Of a DNA stretch of 64,000 nucleotides, positions 13,125 through 38,304 are shown piece by piece. The notes under the pieces were generated by a model. That model did not search any database. It saw only the letters and a list, made by a program, of their open reading frames with translations, and was not told the DNA's origin. Position 1 is the stretch's first letter; each line of letters starts with the position of its first letter. The translations under genes were made by a program, and so were the position numbers. This DNA is from Bythopirellula sp. (GTDB lineage: Bacteria > Planctomycetota > Planctomycetia > Pirellulales > Lacipirellulaceae): contig OZ244170.1 of NCBI GenBank assembly GCA_965216565.1, forward strand, positions 4,864,001-4,928,000, read 5' to 3'.

Positions 13125-13181
13125 TTACCCTCCCTTTGCAAGGTTCTAGGTTTCTTGAGCAACCGAACCTTGAGAATTGTC

Positions 13182-13216
13182 GGACGTCCACTCCTATCGA
13201 GTGGGCGTCCTTTTTT
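13182..13216 (+). terminator. Rho-independent terminator
   Basis: GGACGTCCACTC-ctatc-GAGTGGGCGTCC stem followed by TTTTTT. Confidence 0.8.
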
Positions 13217-13219
13217 CTT

Positions 13220-17164: not shown

Positions 17165-18706
17165 ACTTGGTATCCCGATGAGTGGATCTTCTGCCCCAAT
17201 GATATCTACGCTTTTTACCAGAGAACGCTCTGCATCAAAATTATCGGTTGCTGCGTCGCCCCCTAGGGTCAGTGTGTGAGCGATTTCTCGTCCCGAGACT
17301 GCATCTTTTGCTCCCACGCTCACTAATCCCTCCGAATCATATTGCATGGTGACTTCGATCGGATAATTGGCTTTAGGCTCTGCAATCGGTCCAAAGGAGA
17401 AGCTGCCCAGGCTAAAGGCGTCAGACGGGTTTCCTTTGGACTGCACTACTTCGATTGTCATCCGTGTTTGGTCATTTCGCGACGTCTTAAAGATCCGCTT
17501 CCCCCGCTCTGGCAGCAGCGAATTCCGCTTGACTAGATTGTAGATGGCTTGCTTACCCGTGCGGGGATTGCGAATCCGAACTCCTAAGTCATAGCCTGCT
17601 ATGGATTGCCGATACGAGGCACCTTCAGGATTGCTGCCCGCTCCGATCTTAGCAGCAAGCATGGCAGCCCCGTAAGCGACCGCGTTTTCTGGGTGGCGCG
17701 ATATGATTTCTACCGGGGCATTGCCTACCAGTTCTTCTATGAATTTTCTGACTGCATGAATTTGCGTCGACCCGCCTACCAAGTAAATCTTATCTAGATC
17801 TCCCAGTTCGAGATTTCCAGACTGCAGACACCTGTGGACGATTTCCCCAGTGCGTTGGAGCATTGGTTGGATCAGCCTCTCAAAGTGAGTTTGTGCAAGC
17901 ACAAACTTGAAGGGCTCGGTGCCAATTATGGTACTGTGCCGCACTTGTGTGTTTTTATTACTGCTAAGGCTGATCTTTGTATCATCCGCTAAGCGACGAA
18001 GCTGGGATTGCACCTCTGGAGATTGAGGGAGACTAGTGTGGCTTCGGCTCTGAAAAGCCTCCTTCATCTGCTGCATAATGAGCTCGTCGATCCAACTACC
18101 GCCAATCTCCGTTTCACCTTCGGAAGCGAGTACGTGTAGCGAATCGCGCGAGCCTCGCAGGACTGAGGCATCGAACGATCCTCCTCCAAGGTCGTAGACC
18201 AGAATAGTTTGATCTTGAATATAGTCTTTAGTAAGAAAAGTAGCCGCAGCGACCGACTCATCAACCAACGAGGGAACCCCAATGTCCGCTAGCTCTGCTG
18301 CGCGACGAACCGCACGGCGCTTCGTGTCGCCAAAATGCGAAGGGACGGCGATGACCGCTCTACTGATTTCTTCAAAGGTAGTTGCCTGCAAATCATAGCG
18401 CAACTTCGAAAGAACTAGTGAGTTGATCGCCGCTGCTGACCAGTCTCGGCCCTGGAAGTCCTGAAATACCGGCAATCGATCTCCCAACTGCAGCTTGCTA
18501 TTCCGCACCGCCTTAATTGCATCTTCGTCAGGCAGAACCTTCACGCTTTCCCCAACGACGCATCCCAGCTCACTTAGATGAACGAGCGAAGGCGTATGGA
18601 ATTCGCTGGCATCGCGGGAGACGGGGACCAGTGTAGGAATCCCCTCTGCGTTCACGTGGGCAATAGTAGAATAAGATGTGCCAAGATCAATACCGACGGG
18701 AATCAT
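17156..18706 (-). CDS. Hsp70-family protein (non-DnaK, lacks the C-terminal lid)
   Basis: VGIDLGTSYS, AVIAVPSHF, VYDLGGGSFD, LVGGSTQI, AVAYGAA, substrate-binding-domain-like TSRNDQT and IEVTMQYD; only 516 aa. Confidence 0.93.
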   Translation of the reverse strand: MIPVGIDLGTSYSTIAHVNAEGIPTLVPVSRDASEFHTPSLVHLSELGCVVGESVKVLPDEDAIKAVRNSKLQLGDRLPVFQDFQGRDWSAAAINSLVLSKLRYDLQATTFEEISRAVIAVPSHFGDTKRRAVRRAAELADIGVPSLVDESVAAATFLTKDYIQDQTILVYDLGGGSFDASVLRGSRDSLHVLASEGETEIGGSWIDELIMQQMKEAFQSRSHTSLPQSPEVQSQLRRLADDTKISLSSNKNTQVRHSTIIGTEPFKFVLAQTHFERLIQPMLQRTGEIVHRCLQSGNLELGDLDKIYLVGGSTQIHAVRKFIEELVGNAPVEIISRHPENAVAYGAAMLAAKIGAGSNPEGASYRQSIAGYDLGVRIRNPRTGKQAIYNLVKRNSLLPERGKRIFKTSRNDQTRMTIEVVQSKGNPSDAFSLGSFSFGPIAEPKANYPIEVTMQYDSEGLVSVGAKDAVSGREIAHTLTLGGDAATDNFDAERSLVKSVDIIGAEDPLIGIPSLP

Positions 18707-18711
18707 AATAG

Positions 18712-20727
18712 CTACTCCTCCGCAGATTCGAGTTGGGGATTTAACTCCTGTTGAGATTCCTTCTTCCGACGGCGAGCTTCGCGTCGTGCCAGCAGGGCCG
18801 AGGACCGCTTCGGTCGAGTCTGCTCCTTGGCGGAAATGGAATCTGATTGCTCACCCGATGCCTGACCCGTCCCTTCCTGACTATTCTGCAGTGCCCTTTC
18901 TCCCTGGCTGCCTAACTCATGCGCTTCAGACTGTCCGGTAGATTGTGAAGCCGCTTGAGCCTCCTGTCGGACTGAATCAGAATCGACAGCAACCTCGCTT
19001 CGATAGAGTTTTGCTTGGGTGTGAATCGTACCAGTGACTGATTGATGCAGTTTTCTTGAGTCTGCCTGGAGCGAGCTGACTTGTTTACCTACGCTAGCCA
19101 AATCACTGATGCGCATTTCCAGCTTGCTTCGAATATCTTCGGCACGCATTGATTCTCGCTTCGCTTGTTCCTTGGATCGGTTCGCATGCTCTTCGACTGC
19201 CCGTTTCAGTTCCCTCTCGAATTTCTTGCTGATGTCCCGAAAATAGTCTCTCAAGTATGTCAACTTACCTTTCTCGACTTGTTCGATAACCTTTGTGCCG
19301 TCGCTGAATAGAGAATCTTTGATCTTTGACATCTCTTTCTCAGATTGCGACTCTTTCTCGCGTCGCCACACAAAGATTGCATTGACCATGCTACCAATGA
19401 GTACCGTTGCCATGAATAATCCGAACCCGGAACGCATCAGCCCACTGGCAAACAGATTGGGTAGACCCATACGTCCCATGAGCGAAACGAACATGATCAA
19501 TATGAAAACTTTCTGTCGCCCGGCAGTCAGTACGTCGAAAAACCCCTTGCGAGCCAATTCGATATGCGATTCCTTGCCGATGGCCATCAGGTTTTCGACT
19601 CTGCGCCAGATCTCCGTCTCTCGGAGAGAAACGTTTTCTAGATGGAATTCTGCGCTGTCGATGCCCGGTAGATTCTCGATAGAAGTCTCAGTTAATTCAG
19701 CTAGCTGATGTTGGATCGTCTTCACATCTTCCGATAACTCTTTCCGTAAGGCAAACTCGATGGCTCGGTTGACCGCGCCCAAATGGCTGCCGTTAATCGA
19801 CAGTTTCGTCAGTGATGGAGACTGATGTTTATCCAGATCTTCAAGCTGTAGTTTCGAAACTTGTTCCCGCATCAGATTGGTGAGATAACCAAGAGGTTGG
19901 GTTGCCCGTTCGCTTTTTAGGCTGATTGATTTCTCTAGCGAGGCCAAACCCTCGTTAAACTGATCGCGCACGTCGACAGCAGATTTGTCATTTTGCAGAC
20001 TTGGTCTAGGTGAATGAGCCGCTGCTTTGCGTGGTTGCCTGCTCTTCCTAGATTCCAGAGTGCCTAGTTCCCGCTGCTGACGTCCAACAAGGAAATCGAA
20101 AGCACCCTGCAATAGCCGAATCGAAGGCTCCATGAAAAGGACCTTTCGAAGGAGTCCCTCTGTTTTAGAAGACAGTAGTGCACTGTCGCCGGAAGCCTTC
20201 TCATCAAGAAACAGAGTTTCCATTCTGCCTTTGTGTGACTGAGCATGTGGCTGATCCCACCAAAGACTTTCGCTTGTGTGTGCTTGCGATCCTGCAACCC
20301 AGGGCCATATTGCAGGGAAGTGGGCGGCCAGCGTATCTAACGAATCTACCTCAGTCTCTCCTGAATGATGTCCCACCTCACCCGCAACGACTAATACATG
20401 GCCGGTTGTGCAAAACTCTTGGTTCAACTGCGAGTCGCTAGTGAGTTCTTCAAGATCCGCCAGTATGAATGTGGTGTGATTGTTCTCAACTTTTCTGAGC
20501 ATGTTTGCTGCGATCCAACGTTCCACAGACGCTCGAGCTTTGTCACTCAGGCAAAGTACCGAAACGACGAACGGTCCCTGACCATTGGAAAGAATCTTTT
20601 CAAAGGCACGTTTCGAGGGACTCTCGGCCTGGCCTCGCTCAAGTTTCTCGCTTACTTCTGCGCCCTGGGTGGCCAACAGAGTGAAATCTGCATTTAGCTT
20701 CTCAAGAATCTCAGAGTCTTGGTTCAT
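18712..20727 (-). CDS. Coiled-coil membrane protein with dynamin/mitofusin-like architecture and degenerate GTPase motifs
   Basis: Probable start is ATG 20727 (MNQDSEIL). An alpha/beta N-domain is followed by a long helical region, a hydrophobic hairpin (VFILIMFVSLMG...FGLFMATVLIGSMVNAIFVW), a helical C-arm and a disordered tail. It ends 5 nt before hsp70. Confidence 0.6.
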   Translation of the reverse strand: MNQDSEILEKLNADFTLLATQGAEVSEKLERGQAESPSKRAFEKILSNGQGPFVVSVLCLSDKARASVERWIAANMLRKVENNHTTFILADLEELTSDSQLNQEFCTTGHVLVVAGEVGHHSGETEVDSLDTLAAHFPAIWPWVAGSQAHTSESLWWDQPHAQSHKGRMETLFLDEKASGDSALLSSKTEGLLRKVLFMEPSIRLLQGAFDFLVGRQQRELGTLESRKSRQPRKAAAHSPRPSLQNDKSAVDVRDQFNEGLASLEKSISLKSERATQPLGYLTNLMREQVSKLQLEDLDKHQSPSLTKLSINGSHLGAVNRAIEFALRKELSEDVKTIQHQLAELTETSIENLPGIDSAEFHLENVSLRETEIWRRVENLMAIGKESHIELARKGFFDVLTAGRQKVFILIMFVSLMGRMGLPNLFASGLMRSGFGLFMATVLIGSMVNAIFVWRREKESQSEKEMSKIKDSLFSDGTKVIEQVEKGKLTYLRDYFRDISKKFERELKRAVEEHANRSKEQAKRESMRAEDIRSKLEMRISDLASVGKQVSSLQADSRKLHQSVTGTIHTQAKLYRSEVAVDSDSVRQEAQAASQSTGQSEAHELGSQGERALQNSQEGTGQASGEQSDSISAKEQTRPKRSSALLARREARRRKKESQQELNPQLESAEE

Positions 20728-20832
20728 TTGTCTATCTGCCTGGTGTTTTCCGCTATTTCTGTAAGTACTGGCCTTCACGCTATTTAGAGCTGCAATGCGG
20801 CTATTTGCTGCTTCACAATTCCCCGCTGTAAT

Positions 20833-20862
20833 GGAATTGCCATCGCGGGTTGATTCCGGACA
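20833..20862 (-). promoter_or_regulatory. Putative ECF promoter (copy 1) for the dynamin-like/hsp70 operon
   Basis: Minus strand reads TGTCCG-N14-TGGCAATTCC. Confidence 0.75.
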
Positions 20863-20974
20863 CCTCATGACGAAAATTCCCTGCTCGCAAGCAGTTAGCA
20901 TTCGGGGTACCATCAACAAAGGGCATGAACTGACCGCAGTTTCAATCTCTGAATCTCTCTCGGACGGTCTTGCA

Positions 20975-21613
20975 GTGAGCGACACTGAACAATTTGAGCC
21001 TGATGCCGAATGGAACAGCTTTGTAAAAGGCTTGGTCTCAGGAGATCAAATCGCCTACAACGAATTCTGGGACAAGTATGGCAACCGTCTTAGTGCTGTG
21101 GCGAGGAACAACTTTCCTCGTGGCCTAAACAGACGCCTGGCCCCCGAAGACATCGTTCAATCTACCTGTCGGAGCTTTTTCCATCGGGTCACGACGGGGC
21201 GATTAGAGCTTTCCGATAGCGAAGCACTGTGGCGATTGCTGTGTGCCATCACTCTTAACAAAACTCGAATGAAGCATAGGTTTCATCTGGCCCAAAGGCG
21301 AGCTGCAAACCGCGAACAATCTGCTGAAGTGGAGAGTCCCGACGGTTCCACGTTCCGTGATGAAGTGGTCGACAAAGAGCAAATGCCAGACGAAGCACTC
21401 ATGTTCGCAGAACAATTAGAGGGCATTATGGAACTGCTGGACGACACCGAGCGCCGAATCTTGCAGTTGAAGCTCGAAGACCACACGAATGACGAGATTG
21501 CTGAGCTAGTTGAGCGTTCCGAGCGAACCGTGCGCCGGGTATTGAAACGGCTCCAAGAGAAACTTGAAGCTACGCTGCCAGAAGGCACAATCACATCCGA
21601 TGCAAGCGAATAA
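20975..21613 (+). CDS. ECF-type RNA polymerase sigma factor (planctomycete kinase-associated type)
   Basis: Region 2 GDQIAYNEFW..APEDIVQS..LWRLLCAIT; region 4 LKLEDHTNDEIAELVERSERTVRR. The probable start is GTG 20975. Confidence 0.92.
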   Translation: MSDTEQFEPDAEWNSFVKGLVSGDQIAYNEFWDKYGNRLSAVARNNFPRGLNRRLAPEDIVQSTCRSFFHRVTTGRLELSDSEALWRLLCAITLNKTRMKHRFHLAQRRAANREQSAEVESPDGSTFRDEVVDKEQMPDEALMFAEQLEGIMELLDDTERRILQLKLEDHTNDEIAELVERSERTVRRVLKRLQEKLEATLPEGTITSDASE

Positions 21614-21647
21614 GCCAGCAGCGCCGATCCCCAACGACGCCGCTGGC
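21614..21647 (-). terminator. Terminator hairpin between the convergent ECF gene and the helical-protein operon
   Basis: Minus strand GCCAGCGGCGTCG-loop-CGGCGCTGCTGGC (13 bp including 2 G-U), followed by TTATT. Confidence 0.6.
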
Positions 21648-21658
21648 CTTGCGAGTGA

Positions 21659-22558
21659 CTATCGCGAAGCTGCCTTGCGTAGCACCTCGGCCACGTCGAC
21701 TGCTTTTTTGTCGAACTTCTCGTAGACCTTTTCGCTATTTCGCATCTCATCATTCAAGTCGGTGAGTGCCTTTGTATATTTGGCACTAAGGTCGGCGACG
21801 GCGGATTCGCCATAAGTTTCGGCCATCGTATCGATGTGTTCTTGCAGCTTTTCCCATCCGTCGTCCTGATATTCGGCAACATTTTCTGGGGTCTGGCGTA
21901 CCATCGACTGCATCAGGTCGTTGTATTCGTGAACAGCTACCTTCCATACATCGAAGTTGTCCATCAACTTCTCTGAGACGTCGGTCATACTCTGCTTTAG
22001 CTGAGCGGATCCGCGTTGTTCGACAAACTGGCCGAAAGTGTCAATCTCTTTCTCTAAAGTTTCCTCGATCTCCTTCAATCCCTTGGCACTATCCTCAATG
22101 CGTTGCTCTGTTTTGGTAAAAACACCGGCTAGTGCCTCGTTCGATTCGTCAAGTGCATCTCGTGTTCCATCGATATCGAACACGAGCTGATCAATGACCG
22201 TCCTGGTCTCGTCTACCTTCTCTTCGATTTGTGAATCGTAAGATTTGATCTTCGTCTCGCGAAGTTCCATCGTAGATTGTGCAGAGTCACGTAGCTCAGC
22301 AACTCGAGTCGTGAGCTCGCCGAGCTTCTCCTTCAGTTCGGCGACCCTTGCCCGGCTTCCCGAAGTGGCGGCAGTTACCTTTTCATTCAGCGTGGACAGT
22401 CCTGAGGTCAACGAGGCGGTCAGTTCGCGGTACTCGTTGGCCATGATGTCTAGTTCGGGAGTCTTGTCCACGTAGTCAGTTCCTACGGTTCCGTTCAATG
22501 CTCGGATTTCTTCCAACGTGGTAACAGCTGCGTTAGCAGTGGTTTCGAAGTCGGCCAT
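21659..22558 (-). CDS. Acidic helical/coiled-coil protein D' (paralogue of 25636-26535)
   Basis: 299 aa; starts MADFETTA; SD AAGGA; no signal peptide. Confidence 0.9.
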   Translation of the reverse strand: MADFETTANAAVTTLEEIRALNGTVGTDYVDKTPELDIMANEYRELTASLTSGLSTLNEKVTAATSGSRARVAELKEKLGELTTRVAELRDSAQSTMELRETKIKSYDSQIEEKVDETRTVIDQLVFDIDGTRDALDESNEALAGVFTKTEQRIEDSAKGLKEIEETLEKEIDTFGQFVEQRGSAQLKQSMTDVSEKLMDNFDVWKVAVHEYNDLMQSMVRQTPENVAEYQDDGWEKLQEHIDTMAETYGESAVADLSAKYTKALTDLNDEMRNSEKVYEKFDKKAVDVAEVLRKAASR

Positions 22559-22625
22559 GGTTTGGTTTCCTTAAACTAAAAACTGGGGGGATACTATTAA
22601 GGCACGGGTGACTGATGATGAACAA

Positions 22626-23555
22626 CTAGAAAGAACCGCCAAAATCGCGTGCGAGATCTTGCATTGTTCTGGCTCTTTCCTCGATTTCTGCAACAAGCTC
22701 TTTGAGTTCTTCCAGACGGGGCTGAGCCCACTGCCTGACTTCGCTCGTTTCGTCGCAGAGAGTGTCAACTGTTGATTTGAGCGTATCGAATCGCTCGTGA
22801 GTTGTGCTAAGCACCTCCTTCAACTTGGTCGTCAGCTCTTCTTCGAGCTTGGCACGATTTTGCTCGGCGTACTCGATCATTTTGCCGGCTGATTCTTCAT
22901 AGGCGGCAGCCACGTCCTCCACGGCACTCTCGTTTGGAGCCTTCAGGAGTAGACCATGATTCACGATATCGATGTCGAGAGTCGGTTTCAGGTCCATGGC
23001 GGCATAGCCAAACTCAGACGCCTTTTCGGCTATTTGCTGTTCGAATGCCTCCAGCTTCTGATCGACTTCGCCGTACTCGGCGTACATCCCTTCAAATTCC
23101 TGTTCAAGCGACGGCAGTCGCGACGAAATCTGAGCGTCGGTCTCTTCGTGGACTCTGGCCAGGCTTTGGAGCGACGTCGTCACTCTTTCTGCTTCACCAC
23201 TGATTACGGTCGAAAACTCTTCTACTTCTCGAGTCAGGTTCCCAAGCTCTAGCTGGATGCGTCCTGAACCTTCCGTGACATCCTCAGCCACATCACCCAG
23301 CATTTCGACTACTTCTTCCAACTGCTCTTCGAGGTGGTCGTAGTCGCTATCGACTTCTTTGATAAACTCTTCAATCAAGAATTCGACGTTTTCGAACATG
23401 CCTTCAAAATCCATGGGAAGGCCCGTCTTGGACACATCGAAGGCTGCCTCGAGTACTTTCTGTGCCGAGGCCAATTTCTCGACCATAGTGTTTGCTTCTT
23501 CGGGAACCCAATAAGCGGTTGAGCCCAATGCCTTTAGTTTGTCGTCGTTACTCAT
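22626..23555 (-). CDS. Acidic helical protein C' (paralogue of 26575-27513)
   Basis: 309 aa; starts MSNDDKLKALG..VPE. Confidence 0.9.
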   Translation of the reverse strand: MSNDDKLKALGSTAYWVPEEANTMVEKLASAQKVLEAAFDVSKTGLPMDFEGMFENVEFLIEEFIKEVDSDYDHLEEQLEEVVEMLGDVAEDVTEGSGRIQLELGNLTREVEEFSTVISGEAERVTTSLQSLARVHEETDAQISSRLPSLEQEFEGMYAEYGEVDQKLEAFEQQIAEKASEFGYAAMDLKPTLDIDIVNHGLLLKAPNESAVEDVAAAYEESAGKMIEYAEQNRAKLEEELTTKLKEVLSTTHERFDTLKSTVDTLCDETSEVRQWAQPRLEELKELVAEIEERARTMQDLARDFGGSF

Positions 23556-23616
23556 CGTATTTGCCTTTCTCTAGGGCGGTAGTTGGTCTAGTTCTGTTCA
23601 AGGGAAACTGAGCGAT

Positions 23617-24585
23617 TTAGAGAGCTGTGTTCATCGTGTCGGCTGTCTGATTTGCCGCTTGAACCTTGTCGGGAAGCCCCGCGATTTCTTCGGCAAAAGT
23701 AGTGGCCGTTTGCGAGACGGCCCGTGTTTCCAATGCTTCGTTAGTGGCACGCTCGGAAACGTAGCTGCCGAACCCTCGCACTGCTTCGGTGGCTTCGTTG
23801 CCAGCTGTTTCCACCTCGCTTGCCAATTGTTCGTATTCCGGTGTGATTTTTTGCAAGTATTCTTGCAGCATGGCATCTGCGTCTTTCTCGGTGTCATTCA
23901 CTAATGCGATGAACTCGTCGCGGGCTTCGTCCACCGCCTTCGAGGCTCCCTCTTTGAAGGATGTCCCCATGGCTTGCCACAATTCGAGGCCATCGACAAA
24001 TTCGGAATCGATGATGGGAATATCCGATTCAATGAGTTTGGCGATCTTGGTCTTGAGAGGCGGATGTAGTTCGTTATGCTGATCGATTCGCGTGTTCATC
24101 TGTTGGATTAGTTGATCCCGAGTGCCAGTGAAGCCTTCCTTGCTCTTCTGCAAGGTGTCGAGCAATGAGCGAGCCGATTCCTTGATCGTGCCGAATTTCT
24201 GATCGGAAGTTTCGATGACTCCCGAGAGTGACGCAGTGCCTTGCTGAACGTCGTTTTCAACCGATTCCCGTGCAGCCTCAAGTTTTGTAGTCACGGTGTC
24301 AGCCTGGCCTGTGAAGTCGTCCAGCCGTTTGTCGGCTTGGCTCCACGCCTCCTCGACTTGCTGTTCGAGCTTGCCATAGCTGGTCTCAAACTTTTGCACC
24401 AGGTCGCGTTCGCGTTGCACCCAGTCGGCAATGGTTTCCAAGCTGCCTTTCCAGCCGATTGCTTCCGAATTGAGACGCTCCACGAGGTCACTCGACTGCT
24501 GGGTACCCTGATAGATGTGGGGCAGGTTTTCGTTAAGCTTCTGTTGGACTTCTTCTACGGTGGAACCAAAGTCAGCGATAGACAT
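23617..24585 (-). CDS. Acidic helical protein B' (paralogue of 27564-28535)
   Basis: 322 aa; starts MSIADFGSTVEEVQQKLNE; SD GGAG. Confidence 0.9.
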   Translation of the reverse strand: MSIADFGSTVEEVQQKLNENLPHIYQGTQQSSDLVERLNSEAIGWKGSLETIADWVQRERDLVQKFETSYGKLEQQVEEAWSQADKRLDDFTGQADTVTTKLEAARESVENDVQQGTASLSGVIETSDQKFGTIKESARSLLDTLQKSKEGFTGTRDQLIQQMNTRIDQHNELHPPLKTKIAKLIESDIPIIDSEFVDGLELWQAMGTSFKEGASKAVDEARDEFIALVNDTEKDADAMLQEYLQKITPEYEQLASEVETAGNEATEAVRGFGSYVSERATNEALETRAVSQTATTFAEEIAGLPDKVQAANQTADTMNTAL

Positions 24586-24634
24586 AATGTTTCTCCAAAT
24601 ATCATCTAGAGTTTATGGTTGAGGCTAGGGACTT

Positions 24635-25528
24635 TTACAATTGCTCGTCGACGTCTTGAACGGCGGCGTCCGTTTTTTGGATATCTCCCAGCGTATTCTG
24701 GGCGTAGTCAACTGCATTTTCGACTTGCTGCTGCATTTCTTCGAATGCTTCCTTATAAGCGGTGTCGATGGCGACGAGTCTCGTCACTGCTGCTTCCGCA
24801 CCGCCGTCGACTGTTCGGATGATTTGAGAAGCATGTTGGCCGGTGACGGTTTGATAGGTCAGGCGGGCTTCGCTTTCTAGCTTCTCAATACCCGCATCGA
24901 TTTCGCTGCGGGTTTCGGTCATGATTCCTTCCACTTCTGCTTTCATCGCATCCAGCTTGCTGCCTTGTTCCTCTTCAATCTTGTCTAGCGCGGTGACGAT
25001 TTCTTGTCGCATGGCCTCAAGTTCCTGGAATGCACTTCCCACGGGCTGGAGGTAGCCATCGGAACTCTTTACCGCGGCGTCTTTCTTCTCGTCGATTTGC
25101 GTTGAGAACTGCTCAGCCAGTTGCTTGATTTGATTCAGTTCGCTGTTGAGCAGTTCGTTGTTCGACTCCACCGAGCGAAAGACGTTGTCGCTTTGGGTAT
25201 CTAGTTCGTCGAACACTTTCTCCGCGACTTGTTCAGTTTCGCCTACTTTATCCGTTAGGGTTGTTATGTTCTGTGTGAGGGACGAGAGCTTCTGCTCTGC
25301 TTCGCCCGCAGCCTTATCGAATAATGCATCAAAGCGAGGAAGCAGATCGTTCAAGCTATTCATATGTTCCAAGGCCGATTCCACGGAAGGGATCGTTGTT
25401 TCGGTGATCTCTTCATCCAACGGCACTAGATAATTGGTGATTGCTGTATGCAGCTTTTCACTCGTTTGTTGTAGTTCTTGGGCAGTGCCTAGGTTTTCTT
25501 CGAGTAGATCTTCAATGGTCGATGCCAT
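24635..25528 (-). CDS. Acidic helical protein A' (paralogue of 28585-29475)
   Basis: 297 aa; starts MASTIEDLLEENLGTAQEL; SD GAGGT. Confidence 0.9.
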   Translation of the reverse strand: MASTIEDLLEENLGTAQELQQTSEKLHTAITNYLVPLDEEITETTIPSVESALEHMNSLNDLLPRFDALFDKAAGEAEQKLSSLTQNITTLTDKVGETEQVAEKVFDELDTQSDNVFRSVESNNELLNSELNQIKQLAEQFSTQIDEKKDAAVKSSDGYLQPVGSAFQELEAMRQEIVTALDKIEEEQGSKLDAMKAEVEGIMTETRSEIDAGIEKLESEARLTYQTVTGQHASQIIRTVDGGAEAAVTRLVAIDTAYKEAFEEMQQQVENAVDYAQNTLGDIQKTDAAVQDVDEQL

Positions 25529-25582
25529 GGTTCACCTCGGATTGTTTGATTTTGTTCTTAGGGCCTGGTTGCCCGCTGAATG

Positions 25583-25612
25583 GGAATTGTCATTGCCCGC
25601 CTGTAGCGGACA
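25583..25612 (-). promoter_or_regulatory. Putative ECF promoter (copy 2) ahead of the second cassette
   Basis: Minus strand reads TGTCCG-N14-TGACAATTCC. Confidence 0.75.
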
Positions 25613-25635
25613 CTTTTGGGCGAAAATTCTCGAAA

Positions 25636-26535
25636 TCAGGAGATTTTCTCGAGGATTTCCTTGATGTCGTGCAAAATGCCGATCACGGATTTCAGCCCCA
25701 CGGCGGTGGTATCCATCGCGGTGGTCATGGCTTCTTTGGCCGTGTCCATTGTCTCGCCGGCAGCCGTAGCATTCTCTGCCATGGCGGTGACATCGCCCGA
25801 AAACGATGAAACTCTCTCGGTGACGTTGCTAAGTACCTTCTCCTGCTCCGTTGCAGCCTGTTGCATCGTTTCTTCGGTAGATCGACTCAGCTCTGTGTGA
25901 ACCTCGGTTAGTTTGGTGTCGAATTCCGTTTGCAGGGCATCTAGATGCTGCCGGACTTCGATTCCTTTTTCTTCAAGCTGCGGAATGATGGAGTCGCTAA
26001 CATGGGCGATAAACTCGTCATTCTTCGTGCGAATTGCCGTGGCTTGCTCAGTGACGCCCGTGTTGGTCTCGTCTAGCTTGCTTTGCACGGTGGCAAACGT
26101 GGTTTCGGTTTGCGCGTTCGTTTGCTCGAGAGCCCCTTTGGCCTGCTCACAGCCTGACGTCAGTTCAACAACTTTTGCTTCTACTTGCTGCTGAGCGGTC
26201 TGGACCTGCTGATCCAACTGATTAACCATCTGCGTGACCTCTGCCGATTTATTGATCGAGTCCTCCCGTGAGGAGTTAGCCTGCTCTTTGGTGGCCACCA
26301 GGTGCTGCCGAAGCTGTTGGGCCTTAGCACTTTGCTGCTGGCGTGCGGCTTGGATTTGCTGGGAAATGGCTTCTACGACAGCCAGCATCTCCCCAGAAAG
26401 AGCAGCGTAGTCTTGTCCCGATTGCTCGAGCTTTTCCTGTGCTGCAGAGTACTTCGGTTGCGCGGCATCGATCATCTGATCGACTTCTTGAAGTTTAGAA
26501 ACGGCATCGACAGCGGTGGATTCGAAATCGGCCAT
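25636..26535 (-). CDS. Acidic helical protein D
   Basis: 299 aa; starts MADFESTA; SD AAGGA. Confidence 0.9.
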   Translation of the reverse strand: MADFESTAVDAVSKLQEVDQMIDAAQPKYSAAQEKLEQSGQDYAALSGEMLAVVEAISQQIQAARQQQSAKAQQLRQHLVATKEQANSSREDSINKSAEVTQMVNQLDQQVQTAQQQVEAKVVELTSGCEQAKGALEQTNAQTETTFATVQSKLDETNTGVTEQATAIRTKNDEFIAHVSDSIIPQLEEKGIEVRQHLDALQTEFDTKLTEVHTELSRSTEETMQQAATEQEKVLSNVTERVSSFSGDVTAMAENATAAGETMDTAKEAMTTAMDTTAVGLKSVIGILHDIKEILEKIS

Positions 26536-26574
26536 GATATTTGTCCTTATGGTCTAGGAGTTTGAGTGATTGAG

Positions 26575-27513
26575 CTAGAAGATGCTTGCCACCGTGCCGA
26601 ACACGCTGCCTACGGCTTTCGCGGCGTCGACCAGGCTTTCCAGTGGCTTGATTAAGTTGTCGAGTTCGTCAATGAGGGGGGAGATTGCTTCGCGAATTGC
26701 TTTGGTTTCGCCGTCGGCATTGGTCAGTTTGTCAGTAAGTTCCTTCAGCATGTCAGAGATCTTGGAGAGCAATTCGCGGATCATCTCCTTGGCTTCGCTC
26801 TCCAAAGCATTCACAGCCGCTTCGACCATGCCATCGACACCGCGGGTGAGCACATTCAGATGAATGTCAGTGACGGCATCTTCGAATCGTTCCACAAAGG
26901 AACCGACTTCTTTGGCTAGATCTAGGATGCGGTCACCTAATTCTTCCTGCTGGGCAGTGACTTTCTCGCCTAATGCAACAACCGTTTGTTCGCTTGCCGT
27001 TTTTACTTCGGCCAATGCTGTCTCGAATGAGCCCATCGACCCGTCGAGCGTTTCAAACCCAGTCGACGCTTGCTCTTTGCTAGAGTTGAGCCTCTGTTCG
27101 AGTTGCTGCTCTGCGTTCTGAACTTCGCCGACCATGGCAACGACACGCTCACCCGCCTCAGTAGCTGCGTTATCGAGCTGATCGATCTGGCCGCGGGTTT
27201 GTTCGATGTTAGTAACCATCTCATCGGTGTCGTCAGCCCACTGCGTAGCGGCAGCGCTAAGAGATTCTTCGACGCTCTCTGCATCAAGGGCAAGTTCCGA
27301 CTGCAATTGGCGACTTTCACCCAAATACTCGCGAAGTTCTTGGGCCACCTCCTCCACTCTACTCCGGAGTTGTGAATGGATGCTCTCGAACTCATTCTTT
27401 TGCTGTACTGCCAGCGTGTTGAATTCGGCGACTTGCTGATACATCGTTCCGATGCGTTCGGGGACGTCGACGGCGATTTGGCCCAGTATTTTTAGTTTGT
27501 CGTTGTTATCCAT
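26575..27513 (-). CDS. Acidic helical protein C
   Basis: Start moved to ATG 27513 (MDNNDKLKILG..VPE) by alignment with C', giving 312 aa; hydrophobic C-terminus. Confidence 0.9.
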   Translation of the reverse strand: MDNNDKLKILGQIAVDVPERIGTMYQQVAEFNTLAVQQKNEFESIHSQLRSRVEEVAQELREYLGESRQLQSELALDAESVEESLSAAATQWADDTDEMVTNIEQTRGQIDQLDNAATEAGERVVAMVGEVQNAEQQLEQRLNSSKEQASTGFETLDGSMGSFETALAEVKTASEQTVVALGEKVTAQQEELGDRILDLAKEVGSFVERFEDAVTDIHLNVLTRGVDGMVEAAVNALESEAKEMIRELLSKISDMLKELTDKLTNADGETKAIREAISPLIDELDNLIKPLESLVDAAKAVGSVFGTVASIF

Positions 27514-27563
27514 GATTTGGTACTTTCGTAGGTAGGTCACGCTCTGTGGGTGGGGGAATTTGG

Positions 27564-28535
27564 TTACAGGACGGCGTTAATGGCTCCAGTGATTTTCTTG
27601 GCAATAATCAACTCTGGGATCAACGGCGAGAGCATTCCGGTCGTGGCAACGCCCGCTTGGGTAGTAACGACGCTGGCAATCATCTCAGCGGCCAATGCTT
27701 CGACTACTTCCTTGCCAAGAGTTTCCAGTGCGTCTTCGACTAGATTTCCGAATTCGTTCTCGGTGTAATCCTGCAAATCGACAAAAATCTCTTTGCTCTT
27801 ACTCTTGAATTCCTCGATAAGATTGTCGGCGTCGGTATCGAACGCAGCAAAAAACTCATTGAGACTCGATTCGTGGTCCGTCGCCAGGGTGACAACGTTG
27901 GTCACGGCTTCCACGGTGCTATCGTTGAGACCATCAAATTGCTTGGCAACTTCGTCCTTATGTGACTGCGCGACAGTTGCGGTAAGCGTATCCAACGAAC
28001 CTTTGGAAGTTGCGCTGTCGGCTTCCCATTGTGTTGTGAAGTTCGAAACTTCTTCGCTCAATTCGCCGAACCCAGACTCAGTGTTCTCTCGTAAGGAAAC
28101 GACCATGGTTATCATCTCGGCCGCTCTCTGCTCCATCCTTTCGAGCTGAGTCGTTGTGTTACTGGAGGAATTGTCTAGTTCACTTGTGGCCTCATTGATA
28201 CGCAGTTCTGCCTGCTCTCCGGTCTGCACGATTCTTTCCAGGGCTTCTTCCGTTTTGTGCTGTACATCGGCTAGCTCCACGCCCAACTCATTCACCCCGG
28301 TCTCCAATTCGGACTGAGCCGCGTCGACTTCGCCGTCCATTGCATCAGCAGTTTCCTGCATCGCGTCAATCGATTGATCGAGTTCCGCGAAAGCACTCTG
28401 GTATTGAGTCAGTTCACCCTCCATCTGCTGATGGAGCTCCTTGGCACGCGCTGCGCCCGTGTCCATTAAGGGGAGAATCTCGTTGAGTTTCCGTTGAACT
28501 TCTTCTACGGTCGATCCGAATGCGGTAACAGACAT
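27564..28535 (-). CDS. Acidic helical protein B
   Basis: 323 aa; starts MSVTAFGSTVEEVQRKLNE; hydrophobic C-terminal ~40 aa. Confidence 0.9.
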   Translation of the reverse strand: MSVTAFGSTVEEVQRKLNEILPLMDTGAARAKELHQQMEGELTQYQSAFAELDQSIDAMQETADAMDGEVDAAQSELETGVNELGVELADVQHKTEEALERIVQTGEQAELRINEATSELDNSSSNTTTQLERMEQRAAEMITMVVSLRENTESGFGELSEEVSNFTTQWEADSATSKGSLDTLTATVAQSHKDEVAKQFDGLNDSTVEAVTNVVTLATDHESSLNEFFAAFDTDADNLIEEFKSKSKEIFVDLQDYTENEFGNLVEDALETLGKEVVEALAAEMIASVVTTQAGVATTGMLSPLIPELIIAKKITGAINAVL

Positions 28536-28584
28536 AATTAGATTCCGATAGCAAGTATTTCTAGTAGTTAAGGAAGGGGTAGAG

Positions 28585-29475
28585 TTACATCAGCTCGTCG
28601 ACGAGTTTCAGCACAGGTTTAATCCGCTGCACGAGCGCGACGATTTCTTCGATGTTGTCGATCACACCGTCCAGAGAATCGCCAAAATCGAGACCTAGTT
28701 TTTCGGTGGTGTCGGTGAGGATATCGAGGGCTTTTGCAAAGTCGTCAAAGTCAGAGAGCACGGACTGCAATCCATCGTCGGCCACTTTGCTACGTGCCTT
28801 TTGGCTGGAGCTTTCCGCAACCTGCTTGGCTGTAGCGAGCGTCGAATCGGCCCGTTGCTGGGTTTCGTCCACGCCTTTCTCCATGGCTTGTATTAGCGTT
28901 TGGAGATTCTGGTCAGCATTGGCCCGCAGGGTGTCGTACTCGCTGTTGATCGATTCCTTTTTTGCCTCAAGCTCGGACAAAGAAGACGTCAGCTTGGCGA
29001 CAAAATCTTCAGCCGTATGCTGAGTCTGTTGACCGCTCGATTCGACTAGCTCGCTGTAAGCGGTGGAAGCGTCGTACAGCTCTTGAAGTTGGCTCTCGGT
29101 TGACCTAAGGCGAGATTCAAGATCTGAATCTGCGGCGGTCACCCGGCTCCTGGCAGTGGCCAAGTGCTGACTGATCTCGTCAGCCACTGTGGCGGACCGT
29201 TGTTCGGTTTCTGCTGCTTGCTGAAGTGTGATGTCGAATTTAGCGATTGCCTCTTGTTCGGCTTGATCGAATGTAGTTTGCAGGGAAGTGATCTTGTCTT
29301 GCAGGTTCCGCATACTCTGCTCTGCCGCTGCGCTACTGGTCTCGAACTGCTCTTCAATATGGTCGCCGAGTTCGGTAAGGGCCTGCATATCGCGGTGGGC
29401 TGACTCGCTGGCTTCAAGTAATTCTTGTGCCTTGCCCAGGTTCTCTTCTAGAAGGGCTTCAATGGTAACTGCCAT
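28585..29475 (-). CDS. Acidic helical protein A
   Basis: 296 aa; starts MAVTIEALLEENLGKAQEL; SD GGAG. Confidence 0.9.
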   Translation of the reverse strand: MAVTIEALLEENLGKAQELLEASESAHRDMQALTELGDHIEEQFETSSAAAEQSMRNLQDKITSLQTTFDQAEQEAIAKFDITLQQAAETEQRSATVADEISQHLATARSRVTAADSDLESRLRSTESQLQELYDASTAYSELVESSGQQTQHTAEDFVAKLTSSLSELEAKKESINSEYDTLRANADQNLQTLIQAMEKGVDETQQRADSTLATAKQVAESSSQKARSKVADDGLQSVLSDFDDFAKALDILTDTTEKLGLDFGDSLDGVIDNIEEIVALVQRIKPVLKLVDELM

Positions 29476-29553
29476 GAGTTACTCCATCTTGCTTTGTGGG
29501 TTAACGGGGACTGCCAGAACGTGAAGCACAGCTCCAATCGCTGGCGGTATTTG

Positions 29554-29583
29554 GGAATTGCCAATCTGCGAGCGAACCGGACA
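29554..29583 (-). promoter_or_regulatory. Putative ECF promoter (copy 3) ahead of the first cassette
   Basis: Minus strand reads TGTCCG-N14-TGGCAATTCC. Confidence 0.75.
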
Positions 29584-29615
29584 TGAATGGCAAAATTTTA
29601 TTTTTTGACGTCCGC

Positions 29616-29643
29616 TGTCCGCTTTTTCCGCTAGCTGGCAACT
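29616..29643 (+). promoter_or_regulatory. Putative ECF promoter (copy 4) ahead of the Ig-domain kinase
   Basis: Plus strand reads TGTCCG-N14-TGGCAACT. Confidence 0.68.
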
Positions 29644-29726
29644 AACCCTAAGAGCCCGGCACGCGAATGCAGCCGAGAGCCCCCATCCCCCCTCCTAATG
29701 TCACAAGTTTTGAAACAGGTGTAAAA

Positions 29727-32702
29727 ATGGCTTCCATCGAATGCGAATGCGGCGAACGAATTGAACTCAATCACGATGCCGGCGAAATTAACTGCCCCAG
29801 CTGCGGCAAGCGTTACACCATGAGTGTTAGTGCGGCAGAAGGTTCCGACACTGCGAAGGGCAATTCGTCCAAACCAGAAATTCGGAATACGCCACTCAGC
29901 GCAACCATGATGCAGGATTTACCTGCAGTCACGCAATTTGAGCGTCCGCATGGAGAATCAATCGTAGAGATGGCGTCCCGGCTCGCTCCGGCGGTTGCTG
30001 CCGCTGGTGCTATGGGGGTTGCTGATCCTAGCCAAGACATGCCAGCGCAGGGCGAGCAGCCACGGCGGAACTTTTTTTCCTCGCAGCCCTATCACCTGAC
30101 ACCCGGCCAGCGGAATGACGACGACACAGTCCCCAATGCAAGTGCCCAGACTGAGTTAAATACTGGATTGCGTCTGTTGGACCGCTACGAAGTACAACGA
30201 AAAATCGGCCAAGGTGGCATGAGTACCGTGTACGAAGCTTACGATGAAGTGCGCGGCGAGAATGTTGCGTTAAAGGTATTGCTGCCTACTCTCGCGGCCA
30301 ATCCTGTTTTGCAGGAGCGTTTCTTGCAAGAAGGTCGGCTGTCGAGCAATTTTTCTCATCCCAACATCGCCCGTGTCTATGATCTGCACCAAACTCCCAA
30401 TGGTGTTTTCCTGAGCATGGAGTTGCTACAAGGCTCTACGCTCCGGCACGATATGAACCGCCGGCACGATCAACGCCAATCCTTCAAGCCAACGGAAGTG
30501 TTGCAATTGATGGAGAAGATCTGCGCCGCGTTGGAAGTTGTTCATGCCGAGGAAGTCATCCACCGCGACTTGAAACCGGAGAACCTCTGGCTGGGTATCG
30601 ATGGTTCCTTGAAGGTGATGGACTTTGGTATCGCTCGCGAAGCAGCCCGCACCGCCTACACGTCCGGCGGACGAGGATCAGGGACACCGTATTACATCGC
30701 TCCCGAGCAACTTGCAGCCAGTCCAACGATCGATGGTCGAGCTGACCAGTATTCTGTCGCCATCATGATGTACGAGCTTCTTACCGGAGAATTACCTCAA
30801 GGTGCTTTCGTCGCTCCCCATGAAAAGAACCCTGAGATTCCCAAGAAAATGTCTCAGGCCATTTTCCGTGCTTTGGATGCCGATCCAGCTAACAGGTTCG
30901 ACAACATGCAGGAGTTTTACGAAGCTGCCCAATTCGATGCGCCTAAGCCCCTTAAGTTCAAAGTGTTAAATATGCTTGCCCAACTGAGTCTGATTGCTTT
31001 AGGAGCATTTGTGTTCTTTCGCTGGGGCATTCCTTTACTGGAATCTAAGGACATTCCTGTCTGGGCAACGGTGGGACCAAAGACCGTGGTAGAAAAAAAC
31101 GAATTGAAATTCAATCTACGGAATCCGCAGACTTCGGAACTCGAAGGAAAGCTAACTTACCGACTACTTTCCGACGCACCGATAGGTGCCGTTATTGATG
31201 CGAGCTCGGGTGAGTTTTCCTGGACGCCCACCGAAGCGCAAGGTCCCGGAGAGTATTCCTTTACAGTCATGGCAGTCACCGAGGAAGACGGAGATTCCCC
31301 AATGATTGAAGAACGAGAACTTCAGATCTCGGTCACCGAGAACATTGATCTCCCCGTCATTTCGAAGCCCAAAACCATCGATGCGAAAGAGCATGAGCCG
31401 CTGGTCGTCTCAATAGAGGCTACGGACGAAAACGTTCCGCAAATCGGACTCCGATATGAATTGCAGAGCCCACCGAGTGGGATGAGCATCGATAGCCGCA
31501 CAGGCGAGCTAACCTGGACTCCCAGTGAAAAACTTGGTGGCAATACGGTCCAGGTTCCCTTGCGTGTTTATCTCGAAGGCGACGACAACGATTCAAAATA
31601 CTCAGAGAGTATGGTTCGTTTTCGCGTCGATGAGACCATTGATGCCCCGGTAGTCACTTCGCCTGATCGCATCCATGGAGTCGTCGATCAGCCCTCCAAC
31701 TTCCGCGTGACAGTGTTGGACTCGAATGTTCCAGAGATAGACGACTATTTCCGTCTAAAAGGCGGCGATAAGATCGGCATGAGCGTGGACCCCAGAACAG
31801 GCGAGATCTTTTGGACACCTACCGCCCAACAAATGGAAGAAGACCTTGAGGTCATTCTGCAGGTTGTGTTGGACCAGGGGCAAAAGTCTGAGGTACTCTC
31901 AGAGCAATTGATCACCGTCTCCGCAAGTGGATCTATTGATGAAGATCAGCTCGGTTCCACGGAAGACACACCTCCATTGATTTCCGATACCATTGGGGGT
32001 GGTGGTTTCGGCGGCGGAAGCGGGGGTGTGATCGTCCAACGCCCTACCGGCAGCAATCATGGCACAGGCCACGGTTCCGCCCCAGTGCACGGTAGTCCAT
32101 TTCCCAGTAACAACAAACCCAACCGCCCCGGTGGTGGCAACAATCGACCTGGTGGTAGCAATAACCGACCCAACAATGGGCAGGGGGGACGCCAGGACCG
32201 CGACGAGAAGATCAAGCAAATTGTTGACTTAGTGAAGAAGTACAAAGAGAAAAAGAAGCAGAAGGACTTGCAAGATCTGATCAACAGCGGCGGACACTTA
32301 CGAGACAAGCTTAAGCAAACGTCCGGGCAGCAGGCCAAACCCTCGACCAGACCGTTCCCCGTGCAGGGCATTCAACTGCAAGATCTAAAGCGAAAAACCC
32401 AGAATAAGAGCGGCTGGAGCACCCTTCAAAAGAAGTCGAGTTCCAGTAGTTCCAATCAGAGCACTACGAATCGATCCAACTCAAGAGGTACTAGCGCTAG
32501 CAAGTCCAACAATTCCTGGTCGAGGGTGAACAACAACGTTCAGCAATGGTCTTCTCGGAATCGAAGTTCCAATTCCAGGAGTCAATCCTCCCAGTCCAAC
32601 TCTCGCAACAAGAGCAGGAATGGGCAGAACAATAACTCGAAGAGCAGTTCAGACAAGTGGAAGGATCTTAAGCAATTACAATCCTCGTTCCGCAATCGAT
32701 AG
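29727..32702 (+). CDS. Ser/Thr protein kinase: N-terminal Zn-ribbon, kinase, one TM, three Ig/cadherin-like (He_PIG-type) repeats, low-complexity tail
   Basis: CECG..CPSCG; IGQGGMSTVY, HRDLKPEN, DFG, GTPYYIAPEQ; three repeats of [IV]DxxxGExxWTP; S/N/R/K-rich C-terminus. Confidence 0.93.
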   Translation: MASIECECGERIELNHDAGEINCPSCGKRYTMSVSAAEGSDTAKGNSSKPEIRNTPLSATMMQDLPAVTQFERPHGESIVEMASRLAPAVAAAGAMGVADPSQDMPAQGEQPRRNFFSSQPYHLTPGQRNDDDTVPNASAQTELNTGLRLLDRYEVQRKIGQGGMSTVYEAYDEVRGENVALKVLLPTLAANPVLQERFLQEGRLSSNFSHPNIARVYDLHQTPNGVFLSMELLQGSTLRHDMNRRHDQRQSFKPTEVLQLMEKICAALEVVHAEEVIHRDLKPENLWLGIDGSLKVMDFGIAREAARTAYTSGGRGSGTPYYIAPEQLAASPTIDGRADQYSVAIMMYELLTGELPQGAFVAPHEKNPEIPKKMSQAIFRALDADPANRFDNMQEFYEAAQFDAPKPLKFKVLNMLAQLSLIALGAFVFFRWGIPLLESKDIPVWATVGPKTVVEKNELKFNLRNPQTSELEGKLTYRLLSDAPIGAVIDASSGEFSWTPTEAQGPGEYSFTVMAVTEEDGDSPMIEERELQISVTENIDLPVISKPKTIDAKEHEPLVVSIEATDENVPQIGLRYELQSPPSGMSIDSRTGELTWTPSEKLGGNTVQVPLRVYLEGDDNDSKYSESMVRFRVDETIDAPVVTSPDRIHGVVDQPSNFRVTVLDSNVPEIDDYFRLKGGDKIGMSVDPRTGEIFWTPTAQQMEEDLEVILQVVLDQGQKSEVLSEQLITVSASGSIDEDQLGSTEDTPPLISDTIGGGGFGGGSGGVIVQRPTGSNHGTGHGSAPVHGSPFPSNNKPNRPGGGNNRPGGSNNRPNNGQGGRQDRDEKIKQIVDLVKKYKEKKKQKDLQDLINSGGHLRDKLKQTSGQQAKPSTRPFPVQGIQLQDLKRKTQNKSGWSTLQKKSSSSSSNQSTTNRSNSRGTSASKSNNSWSRVNNNVQQWSSRNRSSNSRSQSSQSNSRNKSRNGQNNNSKSSSDKWKDLKQLQSSFRNR

Positions 32703-38294: not shown

Positions 38295-38304
38295 CTTAAA
38301 CGGA

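Follow-up and report, generated by a model that had tools for sequence, protein, structure and literature searches.

Two diverged cassettes of long helical proteins beside a P-loop-less dynamin-like protein and a dedicated Hsp70 in Bythopirellula

Pore formers of the ClyA family (Nhe, Hbl and Mak) are encoded in operons of paralogous helical proteins of 300–400 amino acids (aa) that differ in their hydrophobic segments, and apolipoproteins A1, A4 and E are built from proline-punctuated 22-residue repeats with a period of 11/3. The hallmark of the ESCRT-III/PspA proteins is a hairpin of helix 1 with helices 2/3 (PMC8281802), and VIPP1 is disassembled by Hsp70 (PMC12798727). ZicK and ZacK, two coiled-coil proteins encoded side by side, form polymers only when both are present (10.1101/553073). 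Few partners of bacterial dynamins are known, and for some of these proteins GTP hydrolysis is dispensable: DynA fuses membranes without it, and LeoA shows no GTPase activity (PMC9950537). Here we describe a locus that shares features with each of these systems. It lies in a 64,000-nucleotide stretch of a Bythopirellula sp. genome (contig OZ244170.1, positions 4,864,001 to 4,928,000; hereafter the window, within which positions are counted), where an initial annotation had recognised a four-gene cassette duplicated in tandem at 21659..29475. That annotation, supported in part, had missed a hydrophobic C-terminal tip that the second copy has lost, a helical period of about 25/7, and a neighbouring module of a dynamin-like pseudo-GTPase and an Hsp70. 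The literature searched, mostly papers outside subscription and their main texts, holds no description of the module.

Two copies of a four-gene cassette

Eight open reading frames (ORFs) follow one another on the minus strand in the order A1 B1 C1 D1 A2 B2 C2 D2. The first copy comprises A1 (28585..29475, 296 aa), B1 (27564..28535, 323 aa), C1 (26575..27513, 312 aa) and D1 (25636..26535, 299 aa), and the second A2 (24635..25528, 297 aa), B2 (23617..24585, 322 aa), C2 (22626..23555, 309 aa) and D2 (21659..22558, 299 aa), with the pair lengths given in the initial annotation. The ATG of C1 at 27513 agrees with the starts of its orthologues; a GTG at 27540 lies upstream in the same frame. All eight proteins are acidic (net charge −25 to −45) and poor in proline (0.3–1.9%), and none has a hydrophobic N-terminal stretch or signal peptide, again as annotated.

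Cognate proteins align globally with z of 8.9–11.7 against 200 shuffles. Similarity had been thought to end near residue 20, but removal of the first 30 residues still leaves z of 4.8–7.9. All 28 pairs score above 2 (2.2–11.7), and C1/D1 (9.1) exceeds D1/D2 (8.9), which means that shuffling provides no control for shared helical periodicity and that these values are inflated. The pairing of A1 with A2, B1 with B2, C1 with C2 and D1 with D2 therefore rests on N-terminal identity, on order and length, on DNA repeats of 41–72 nt shared by the 5′ ends of cognate genes at a spacing of 3947–3977 nt and, for B, on a tree. The same eight genes occur on an independent metagenome contig (L004), 69–76% identical and ungapped with 220–233 identical residues per protein, and in the order found in the window (kinase, cassettes, extracytoplasmic function (ECF) sigma factor, E); the stretch of L004 that was read ends short of the Hsp70 position. 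An assembly artefact is unlikely, given this contig and the region 17000–31000, which is unbroken and without difference in two assembled runs of one sample, which may be where this DNA came from. The nearest relatives with names (Bythopirellula, Aureliella and Pirellulaceae) likewise suggest a planctomycete host. Judged from these alignments, a four-gene set encoding long helical proteins is present in two diverged copies, and the proposed tandem duplication is real. Comparing the profiles of A, B, C and D gave probabilities of 95–98%, for C/D over 35 columns only; common ancestry of the four is likely but not proven, because periodicity could explain all of these matches and the C/D match is so short.

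Among the loci read, a single cassette is more common than two. The survey of relatives suggested in the initial annotation found a single cassette in four related genomes (G459–G462) and two on L004 besides the window. G461 has one contiguous A-B-C-D. In G459 and G460 the genes A, B, C and D are divided between two contigs per genome, which stop at the ECF gene; the neighbourhoods agree with the window as far as the contigs reach, and no further match was found in either genome. In G462 a dynamin-like gene and an Hsp70 gene are followed by B, C and D, all co-oriented; B, C and D were located by tblastn on a frameshifted contig and A by eye in a three-frame translation. The heavily frameshifted G462 record (L008) is titled uncultured beta proteobacterium and its module is planctomycete-like, a combination that may reflect a mislabelled record or transfer of the module. 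In G461 a complete Wadjet (JetABCD) operon stands divergently beside the single cassette (L057:1777-8462). A third two-cassette locus is likely from the B1 protein P0007 and the B2-clade protein P0066, both from JGI contigs of 24,581 bases, the equal size being the sole basis.

In the three genomes with intact genes the proteins measure 296 (A), 322 (B), 312 (C) and 299 aa (D). Copy 1 aligns to them with 0–8 gap positions at about 20–30% identity; together with the ungapped L004 alignments this supports the suggested selection on length and register. Identity to copy 1 is 14–26% in the middle of the chains, 12–20 of the first 30 residues and 16–26 of the last 45. Copy 2 keeps the N-terminal segment (10–19 of 30) and matches at only 4–11 of the last 45. 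The annotated conservation of the N-terminus alone thus holds between the two copies of the window; in the family both ends are conserved, the C-terminal tip as well or better.

Rod-like chains and the loss of their hydrophobic tip

Over residues 11–190, hydrophobic residues in A, B, C and D recur with a period of 3.56–3.58, with a power of 33–56 against a shuffle 95th percentile of 6–7 (alignments of 7 rows for A, 110 for B, 7 for C and 7 for D). The initial annotation had weighed periods of 7 and of 11/22 residues; neither applies, as the power is near zero at 3.5 (heptad) and 1.3–3.0 at 3.67. Past a hinge near residue 190 the period becomes 3.65–3.76. Each chain thus consists of two helices joined by a hinge, the first about 180 residues long with a period of 3.57 (25/7). 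A period of 25/7 makes a nearly straight bundle, and 300 residues at 1.5 Å each would extend to about 45 nm. B, the only cassette protein modelled as a monomer, was predicted by AlphaFold2 for B1 as a helix at 10–188 (pLDDT mostly 86–96) and another at 193–322, with an overall pLDDT of 80 and a pTM of 0.37, which makes the global shape of this extended model unreliable. Two naked long helices would be expected to need partners. Prediction of a complex of the last 250 residues of A1, C1, D1 and B1 scored 0.01 against a mark of 0.32 and is uninformative either way. With the B model, Foldseek returned no match and VIA generic long helices only (best Z 9.3 at a root-mean-square deviation (rmsd) of 206).

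The B profile found 324 representatives at an E-value ≤0.001 and 75 at 1e-10, among them proteins of Stenomitos rutilans and Ca. Elarobacter; NCBI MBW4475171.1 and HEV3087927.1 are examples of distant B homologues. Among the 149 matches listed and examined, 108 had 280–360 aa, 24 were shorter and 17 were longer than 500 aa; the alignment of 110 combines those 108 with six close homologues, minus four partial-looking ones. Its members average 324 aa (standard deviation 11), with 90 of the 110 within 12 of this value, although the length filter makes this uniformity partly circular. None of the curated families describes the eight window proteins: the commonest match is Pfam Apolipoprotein, at no more than 36 bits against a cut-off of 90. 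Three generic helical models pass their cut-offs narrowly for single proteins, including Sec10_N (C1) and DLP_helical (B2), with IFT57 and others below. NCBIfam and PADLOC gave weak coiled-coil matches only for A–D. The A–D family is therefore uncurated, with hundreds of distant members under wrong database labels (MlaD, SMC, gas vesicle and phage-infection proteins).

Column conservation in B peaks at 281–320 (0.45–0.53, compared with 0.19–0.34 elsewhere), and by this measure the C-terminal hydrophobic tip is the most strongly conserved part of the family. The mean hydropathy of the last 45 residues lies between +0.04 and +1.14 in each of the 19 proteins from copy 1 or from single cassettes, and between −0.44 and −0.90 in each of the eight copy-2 proteins, while the protein bodies are alike. 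All four second-copy proteins, at −0.44 to −0.90 against +0.14 to +1.14, have lost the tip, a parallel change in four genes. In copy 1 the tip of A1 is amphipathic and that of B1 (last 45 aa, 27567–27701) is the most hydrophobic of the cassette; A2, B2, C2 and D2 end in polar tips.

Copy 2 has been maintained. Between the window and L004 the proportions of nonsynonymous and synonymous differences (pN and pS) are 0.12–0.17 and 0.65–0.73 for both copies, and 0.14–0.16 and 0.68–0.73 for copy 2 alone; the resulting dN/dS of about 0.05–0.12 is rough because synonymous sites are near saturation. Copy 2 proteins are 72–75% identical to those of L004, ungapped, and the pattern is one of purifying selection. 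In a B tree of 22 rows, computed with the tip left out, B2 groups with P0066 and P0058 (support 100/98), apart from the B1 clade (100/99). A clade of B1 and B2 of the two loci is rejected (p-AU 2e-7), and with it a recent in-place duplication of B, so the duplication is old or the copy came from elsewhere. The tips of P0066 and P0058 are intermediate or intact (+0.26 and +0.80), and tip loss was accordingly gradual. Weak or polar tips (+0.08 to −0.75) recur in four distant B homologues that were chosen after their values had been seen: P0113 and P0163 pair elsewhere in the tree, and P0169 and P0174 sit on long, unsure branches. This suggests that tip loss happened more than once. From its sequences, the tip-less copy is a specialised set, and the loss points to a putative regulated membrane-binding assembly. 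A second cassette that is simply redundant or decaying, without a role of its own, is very improbable: four genomes manage with a single cassette and close relatives have lost both, but the parallel tip change, the ungapped conservation despite near-saturated synonymous sites and the separate B2 clade largely refute it.

A dynamin-like protein and an Hsp70 beside the cassettes

Gene E (18712..20727, minus strand, 671 aa) is predicted to encode a bacterial dynamin-like protein with a reduced G domain. In its AlphaFold2 model (pLDDT 78) the G domain sits in a helical bundle with a trunk and a paddle, a modelled dynamin fold in the order N-terminal helix, alpha/beta G-type domain, helical trunk, hydrophobic paddle (hydrophobic helices at 407–453) and return helix, as in BDLP (2j69/2j68), LeoA (4aur), the Campylobacter dynamin-like pair (5owv) and IniA (6j72). 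The top seven Foldseek rows were bacterial dynamins (E-values 1.5e-7 to 4.6e-5), including BDLP 2j69 at 1.5e-7, LeoA at 1.3e-6, the Campylobacter pair and IniA. VIA matched E to Fzo1, MFN2 and dynamins with Z of 10–12, a designed bundle ranking first at 12.5; 5owv_A gave Z 11.1 (428 aligned residues, rmsd 9.8), and the G-type domain matched EngA with Z 9.1 (131 aligned, rmsd 3.3). Hinge differences keep the TM-scores low (about 0.2).

The G1 P-loop pattern for GTP binding is GxxxxGK[ST]. This Walker A pattern is found in none of the 25 aligned E homologues, and E itself has no Pfam match, Dynamin_N included, and no dynamin match in PADLOC. The missing P-loop makes E a dynamin-derived pseudo-GTPase rather than a canonical dynamin, apparently inactive as a GTPase. 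Unlike bacterial dynamins, E has a G domain of only about 150 residues and stands singly, its neighbours being an Hsp70 and the four helical paralogues in place of another dynamin. Elsewhere in the genome, two adjacent ORFs (G000:C1:3426172-3427870, outside the window) exceed the Pfam Dynamin_N cut-off; they may encode an active pair of dynamins, or GTPases related to these, that could partner E. Six B homologues have a longest contig equal in size to that of an E homologue (557586, 12521, 19635, 69322, 16053 and 5705 bases).

The Hsp70 gene (17156..18706, minus strand, 516 aa) follows E by 5 nt. Its product has the actin-like ATPase domain and substrate-binding beta domain of the family (Pfam HSP70, 254 bits, E-value 3e-75) with intact phosphate and adenine motifs, and is the only Hsp70 of the genome besides DnaK. 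It is not DnaK proper, having 516 rather than 631 aa, no C-terminal lid and 233 against 648 bits for the NCBIfam equivalog. In relatives the nucleotide-binding motifs are degenerate (L007:11420-12982, L008:12379-13251 and L005:1397-2842), so both module enzymes tend towards pseudo-enzymes.

Between E and the cassettes lies an ECF sigma factor gene (20795..21613, plus strand; Pfam Sigma70_ECF and TIGR02937 over cut-off), convergent with D2 and divergent from E, whose true start is probably further downstream. It occupies the same place in L004, L006 and L058 and lies beside E in L007. Divergent from A1, a receptor-type Ser/Thr kinase (29667..32702, plus strand; Pfam Pkinase and He_PIG) has a transmembrane segment at 433–451 and Ig-like repeats, and is found at the same position in L004 and G459. 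A Cys-pair segment resembling a zinc ribbon forms its start, and a long low-complexity tail rich in Ser, Asn, Gly and Arg its end, the tail also occurring in L004. A second Ser/Thr kinase with four C-terminal hydrophobic helices (14852..17164, plus strand) is convergent with the Hsp70 gene and has the same place in L005 and L007.

Tentatively, and short of calling it probable, we favour a hetero-oligomeric, membrane-engaging rod that acts beside a pseudo-dynamin, with Hsp70 controlling its assembly and copy 2 as a tip-less modulator. The data show gene order, chain lengths, periodicity, tip loss, selection, the modelled fold of E and the linkage; we infer the co-assembly, the membrane binding and the roles of Hsp70, ECF factor, kinases and copy 2. 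A, B, C and D, as four old paralogues, would assemble together in register, giving a long and almost straight rod or tube, with the N-terminal segments fixing the register and the C-terminal tips engaging the inner membrane. E would insert into the membrane through its paddle and serve as an anchor or a scaffold, and the Hsp70 would assemble or dismantle the polymer, by analogy with its action on VIPP1. Under envelope stress, the ECF factor and two membrane kinases may turn the module on. Copy-2 subunits, keeping the assembly surfaces without membrane engagement, could damp, cap or extend the rod. The locus thus offers a P-loop-less dynamin with candidate partners in one expressible, reconstitutable module, and its two cassettes form a natural tip-on/tip-off pair, which makes tip function testable without engineering. 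More doubtful is the further proposal of an undescribed class of membrane machine, in which a rod of about 45 nm with a membrane-inserting tip, a GTPase-dead dynamin and its own Hsp70 replace the ESCRT-III/Vps4 pair, and a tip-less antagonist set arose more than once; such a machine would recur across phyla (planctomycetes, cyanobacteria and Ca. Elarobacter).

Several points weigh against the proposed rod. The tips of A and D are mildly hydrophobic and could be an assembly core instead of a membrane anchor. The Hsp70 motifs are degenerate or lost in G461 and G462 and partly changed in G459, which weakens a role in ATP-driven disassembly, and an HPD motif is absent from the four neighbours checked. 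In G461 the ABCD genes lie on a different contig from ECF-E-Hsp70-kinase, next to the Wadjet operon, so adjacency of the module is not obligatory, and the neighbourhoods read are a few planctomycete-like loci. A rare and deletable module, finally, suits a conflict system better than housekeeping repair.

Distribution and alternative explanations

The cassette was found in one of 400 other genomes of the order (in the large genome surveys 5–7 candidates per genome were scored). Two of 61 relatives matched, namely the genome itself and an SMC-like coiled coil. At an E-value ≤1e-8, 34 of 401 genomes of the phylum matched, 33 of them partially, with E-values of at least 3e-13 and matches stopping before the tip motif; one of the 33 (G333) was read and has no cassette. 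Among 301 genomes around G462, G462 itself was the single match. No match was obtained in plasmid searches with P0052, P0061, P0203 and E or in a phage search with P0046, and no viral contig matched the close B alignment. Contigs of close relatives from two other studies (runs X5 and X6) carry a 3,211-base deletion from 25192 to 28404, whose joint fuses residues 1–44 of B1 to A2 from residue 113 and yields the chimeric protein P0008; another breakpoint lies within A1, at 29141. In one of these contigs a further 6,835 bases, reaching from Hsp70 to B2 (17432–24268), are deleted, and A2 has lost one base (24673). The module is accessory and has decayed as a whole in close relatives.

This rarity and three distinct lesions found among close relatives favour a conflict system, which we regard as the main competitor, though an unlikely one. 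In it A–D would form a multi-component membrane-damaging effector, akin to a tripartite alpha-pore toxin or an abortive anti-phage pore, that the pseudo-dynamin and Hsp70 keep in check, the tip-less copy serving as decoy or immunity set. Like Nhe, Hbl and Mak, A–D form an operon of paralogous helical proteins differing in their hydrophobic segments, here the tips, and C1 and C2 match NheA (E-value 7.5e-4) and MakE (8.1e-4) faintly. These matches reach 18.5 bits each against cut-offs of 500 and 360 and stand amid many unrelated coiled-coil matches. Unlike those toxins, A–D lack signal peptides and would be cytoplasmic, the B model shows no compact ClyA-type bundle, though with a pTM of 0.37 its global shape is unreliable, and the set is linked to a pseudo-dynamin and an Hsp70. 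A Bacillus dynamin-like protein gives phage resistance, going by a title cited in PMC9950537, and Wadjet adjoins ABCD in G461; yet Wadjet is the single defence neighbour among the loci read, and PADLOC returned weak coiled-coil matches for A1–D1 and none for E or Hsp70.

An intermediate-filament-like heteropolymer resembling ZicK/ZacK, anchored to the membrane by E, appears improbable. A–D are likewise a fixed set of long, non-enzymatic, neighbouring helical proteins, which may depend on one another for assembly; Stenomitos has a B homologue, and Atlas look-alikes of 297–310 aa are mostly cyanobacterial (scores 0.79–0.88, leads only). In contrast to the four chains here, ZicK and ZacK are two, about 55% conserved and present in about half of cyanobacteria, widely in filamentous ones, with no transmembrane segment and no reported hydrophobic tip (10.1101/553073); the module here is sporadic and dispensable, and its heptad power over residues 11–190 is near zero.

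We consider it similarly improbable that A–D are lipid carriers, either apolipoprotein-like amphipathic belts or an MCE/PqiB-needle-like helical tunnel, which would carry lipid towards or away from sites that E bends. Like exchangeable apolipoproteins (PF01442) they are acidic amphipathic helices; 73 of the 110 B proteins match Pfam Apolipoprotein at an E-value ≤0.001, the top PDB sequence match is apolipoprotein A-IV (1e-20), and the period past the hinge is near 3.67. But the eight window proteins remain below the Pfam cut-off, they have no proline-punctuated 22-mers (1.1% Pro), the main helix follows 25/7, and myosin, tape measures and designed bundles match nearly as well.

Like PspA, Vipp1 and ESCRT-III, A–D are non-enzymatic helical proteins with a terminal, putatively membrane-binding segment and an Hsp70 as possible disassembler (PMC12798727). 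Membership was rejected on the B model, in which the unbroken helix 10–188 of about 180 residues leaves no α1-α2/3 hairpin. The hydrophobic end is C-terminal, there is no N-terminal helix 0, and four different chains of about 300 aa are involved. PspA_IM30 and Snf7 are not listed for the eight proteins at an E-value ≤0.01, and neither appears in the 25 families, out of 102, that were shown for the 110 B proteins. WXG100 proteins are hairpins of about 100 aa with a central WXG, against 300 aa in A–D; D2 reaches 20.8 of the 44.85 bits for TIGR03930.

Promoter and terminator scans of the region were at chance level (4 against 7.7 and 18 against 14.5), and an RNA look-up listed no holder. Just past the downstream kinase lies a family 1 glycoside hydrolase gene (13136–14626, plus strand). 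On the other flank, the minus-strand genes 33784–36732 and 36762–38321 encode secreted-looking proteins with VPEP ends and hydrophobic tails, PEP-CTERM-like by eye; the product of 33784–36732 seems internally duplicated, with a second VPEP in mid-protein.

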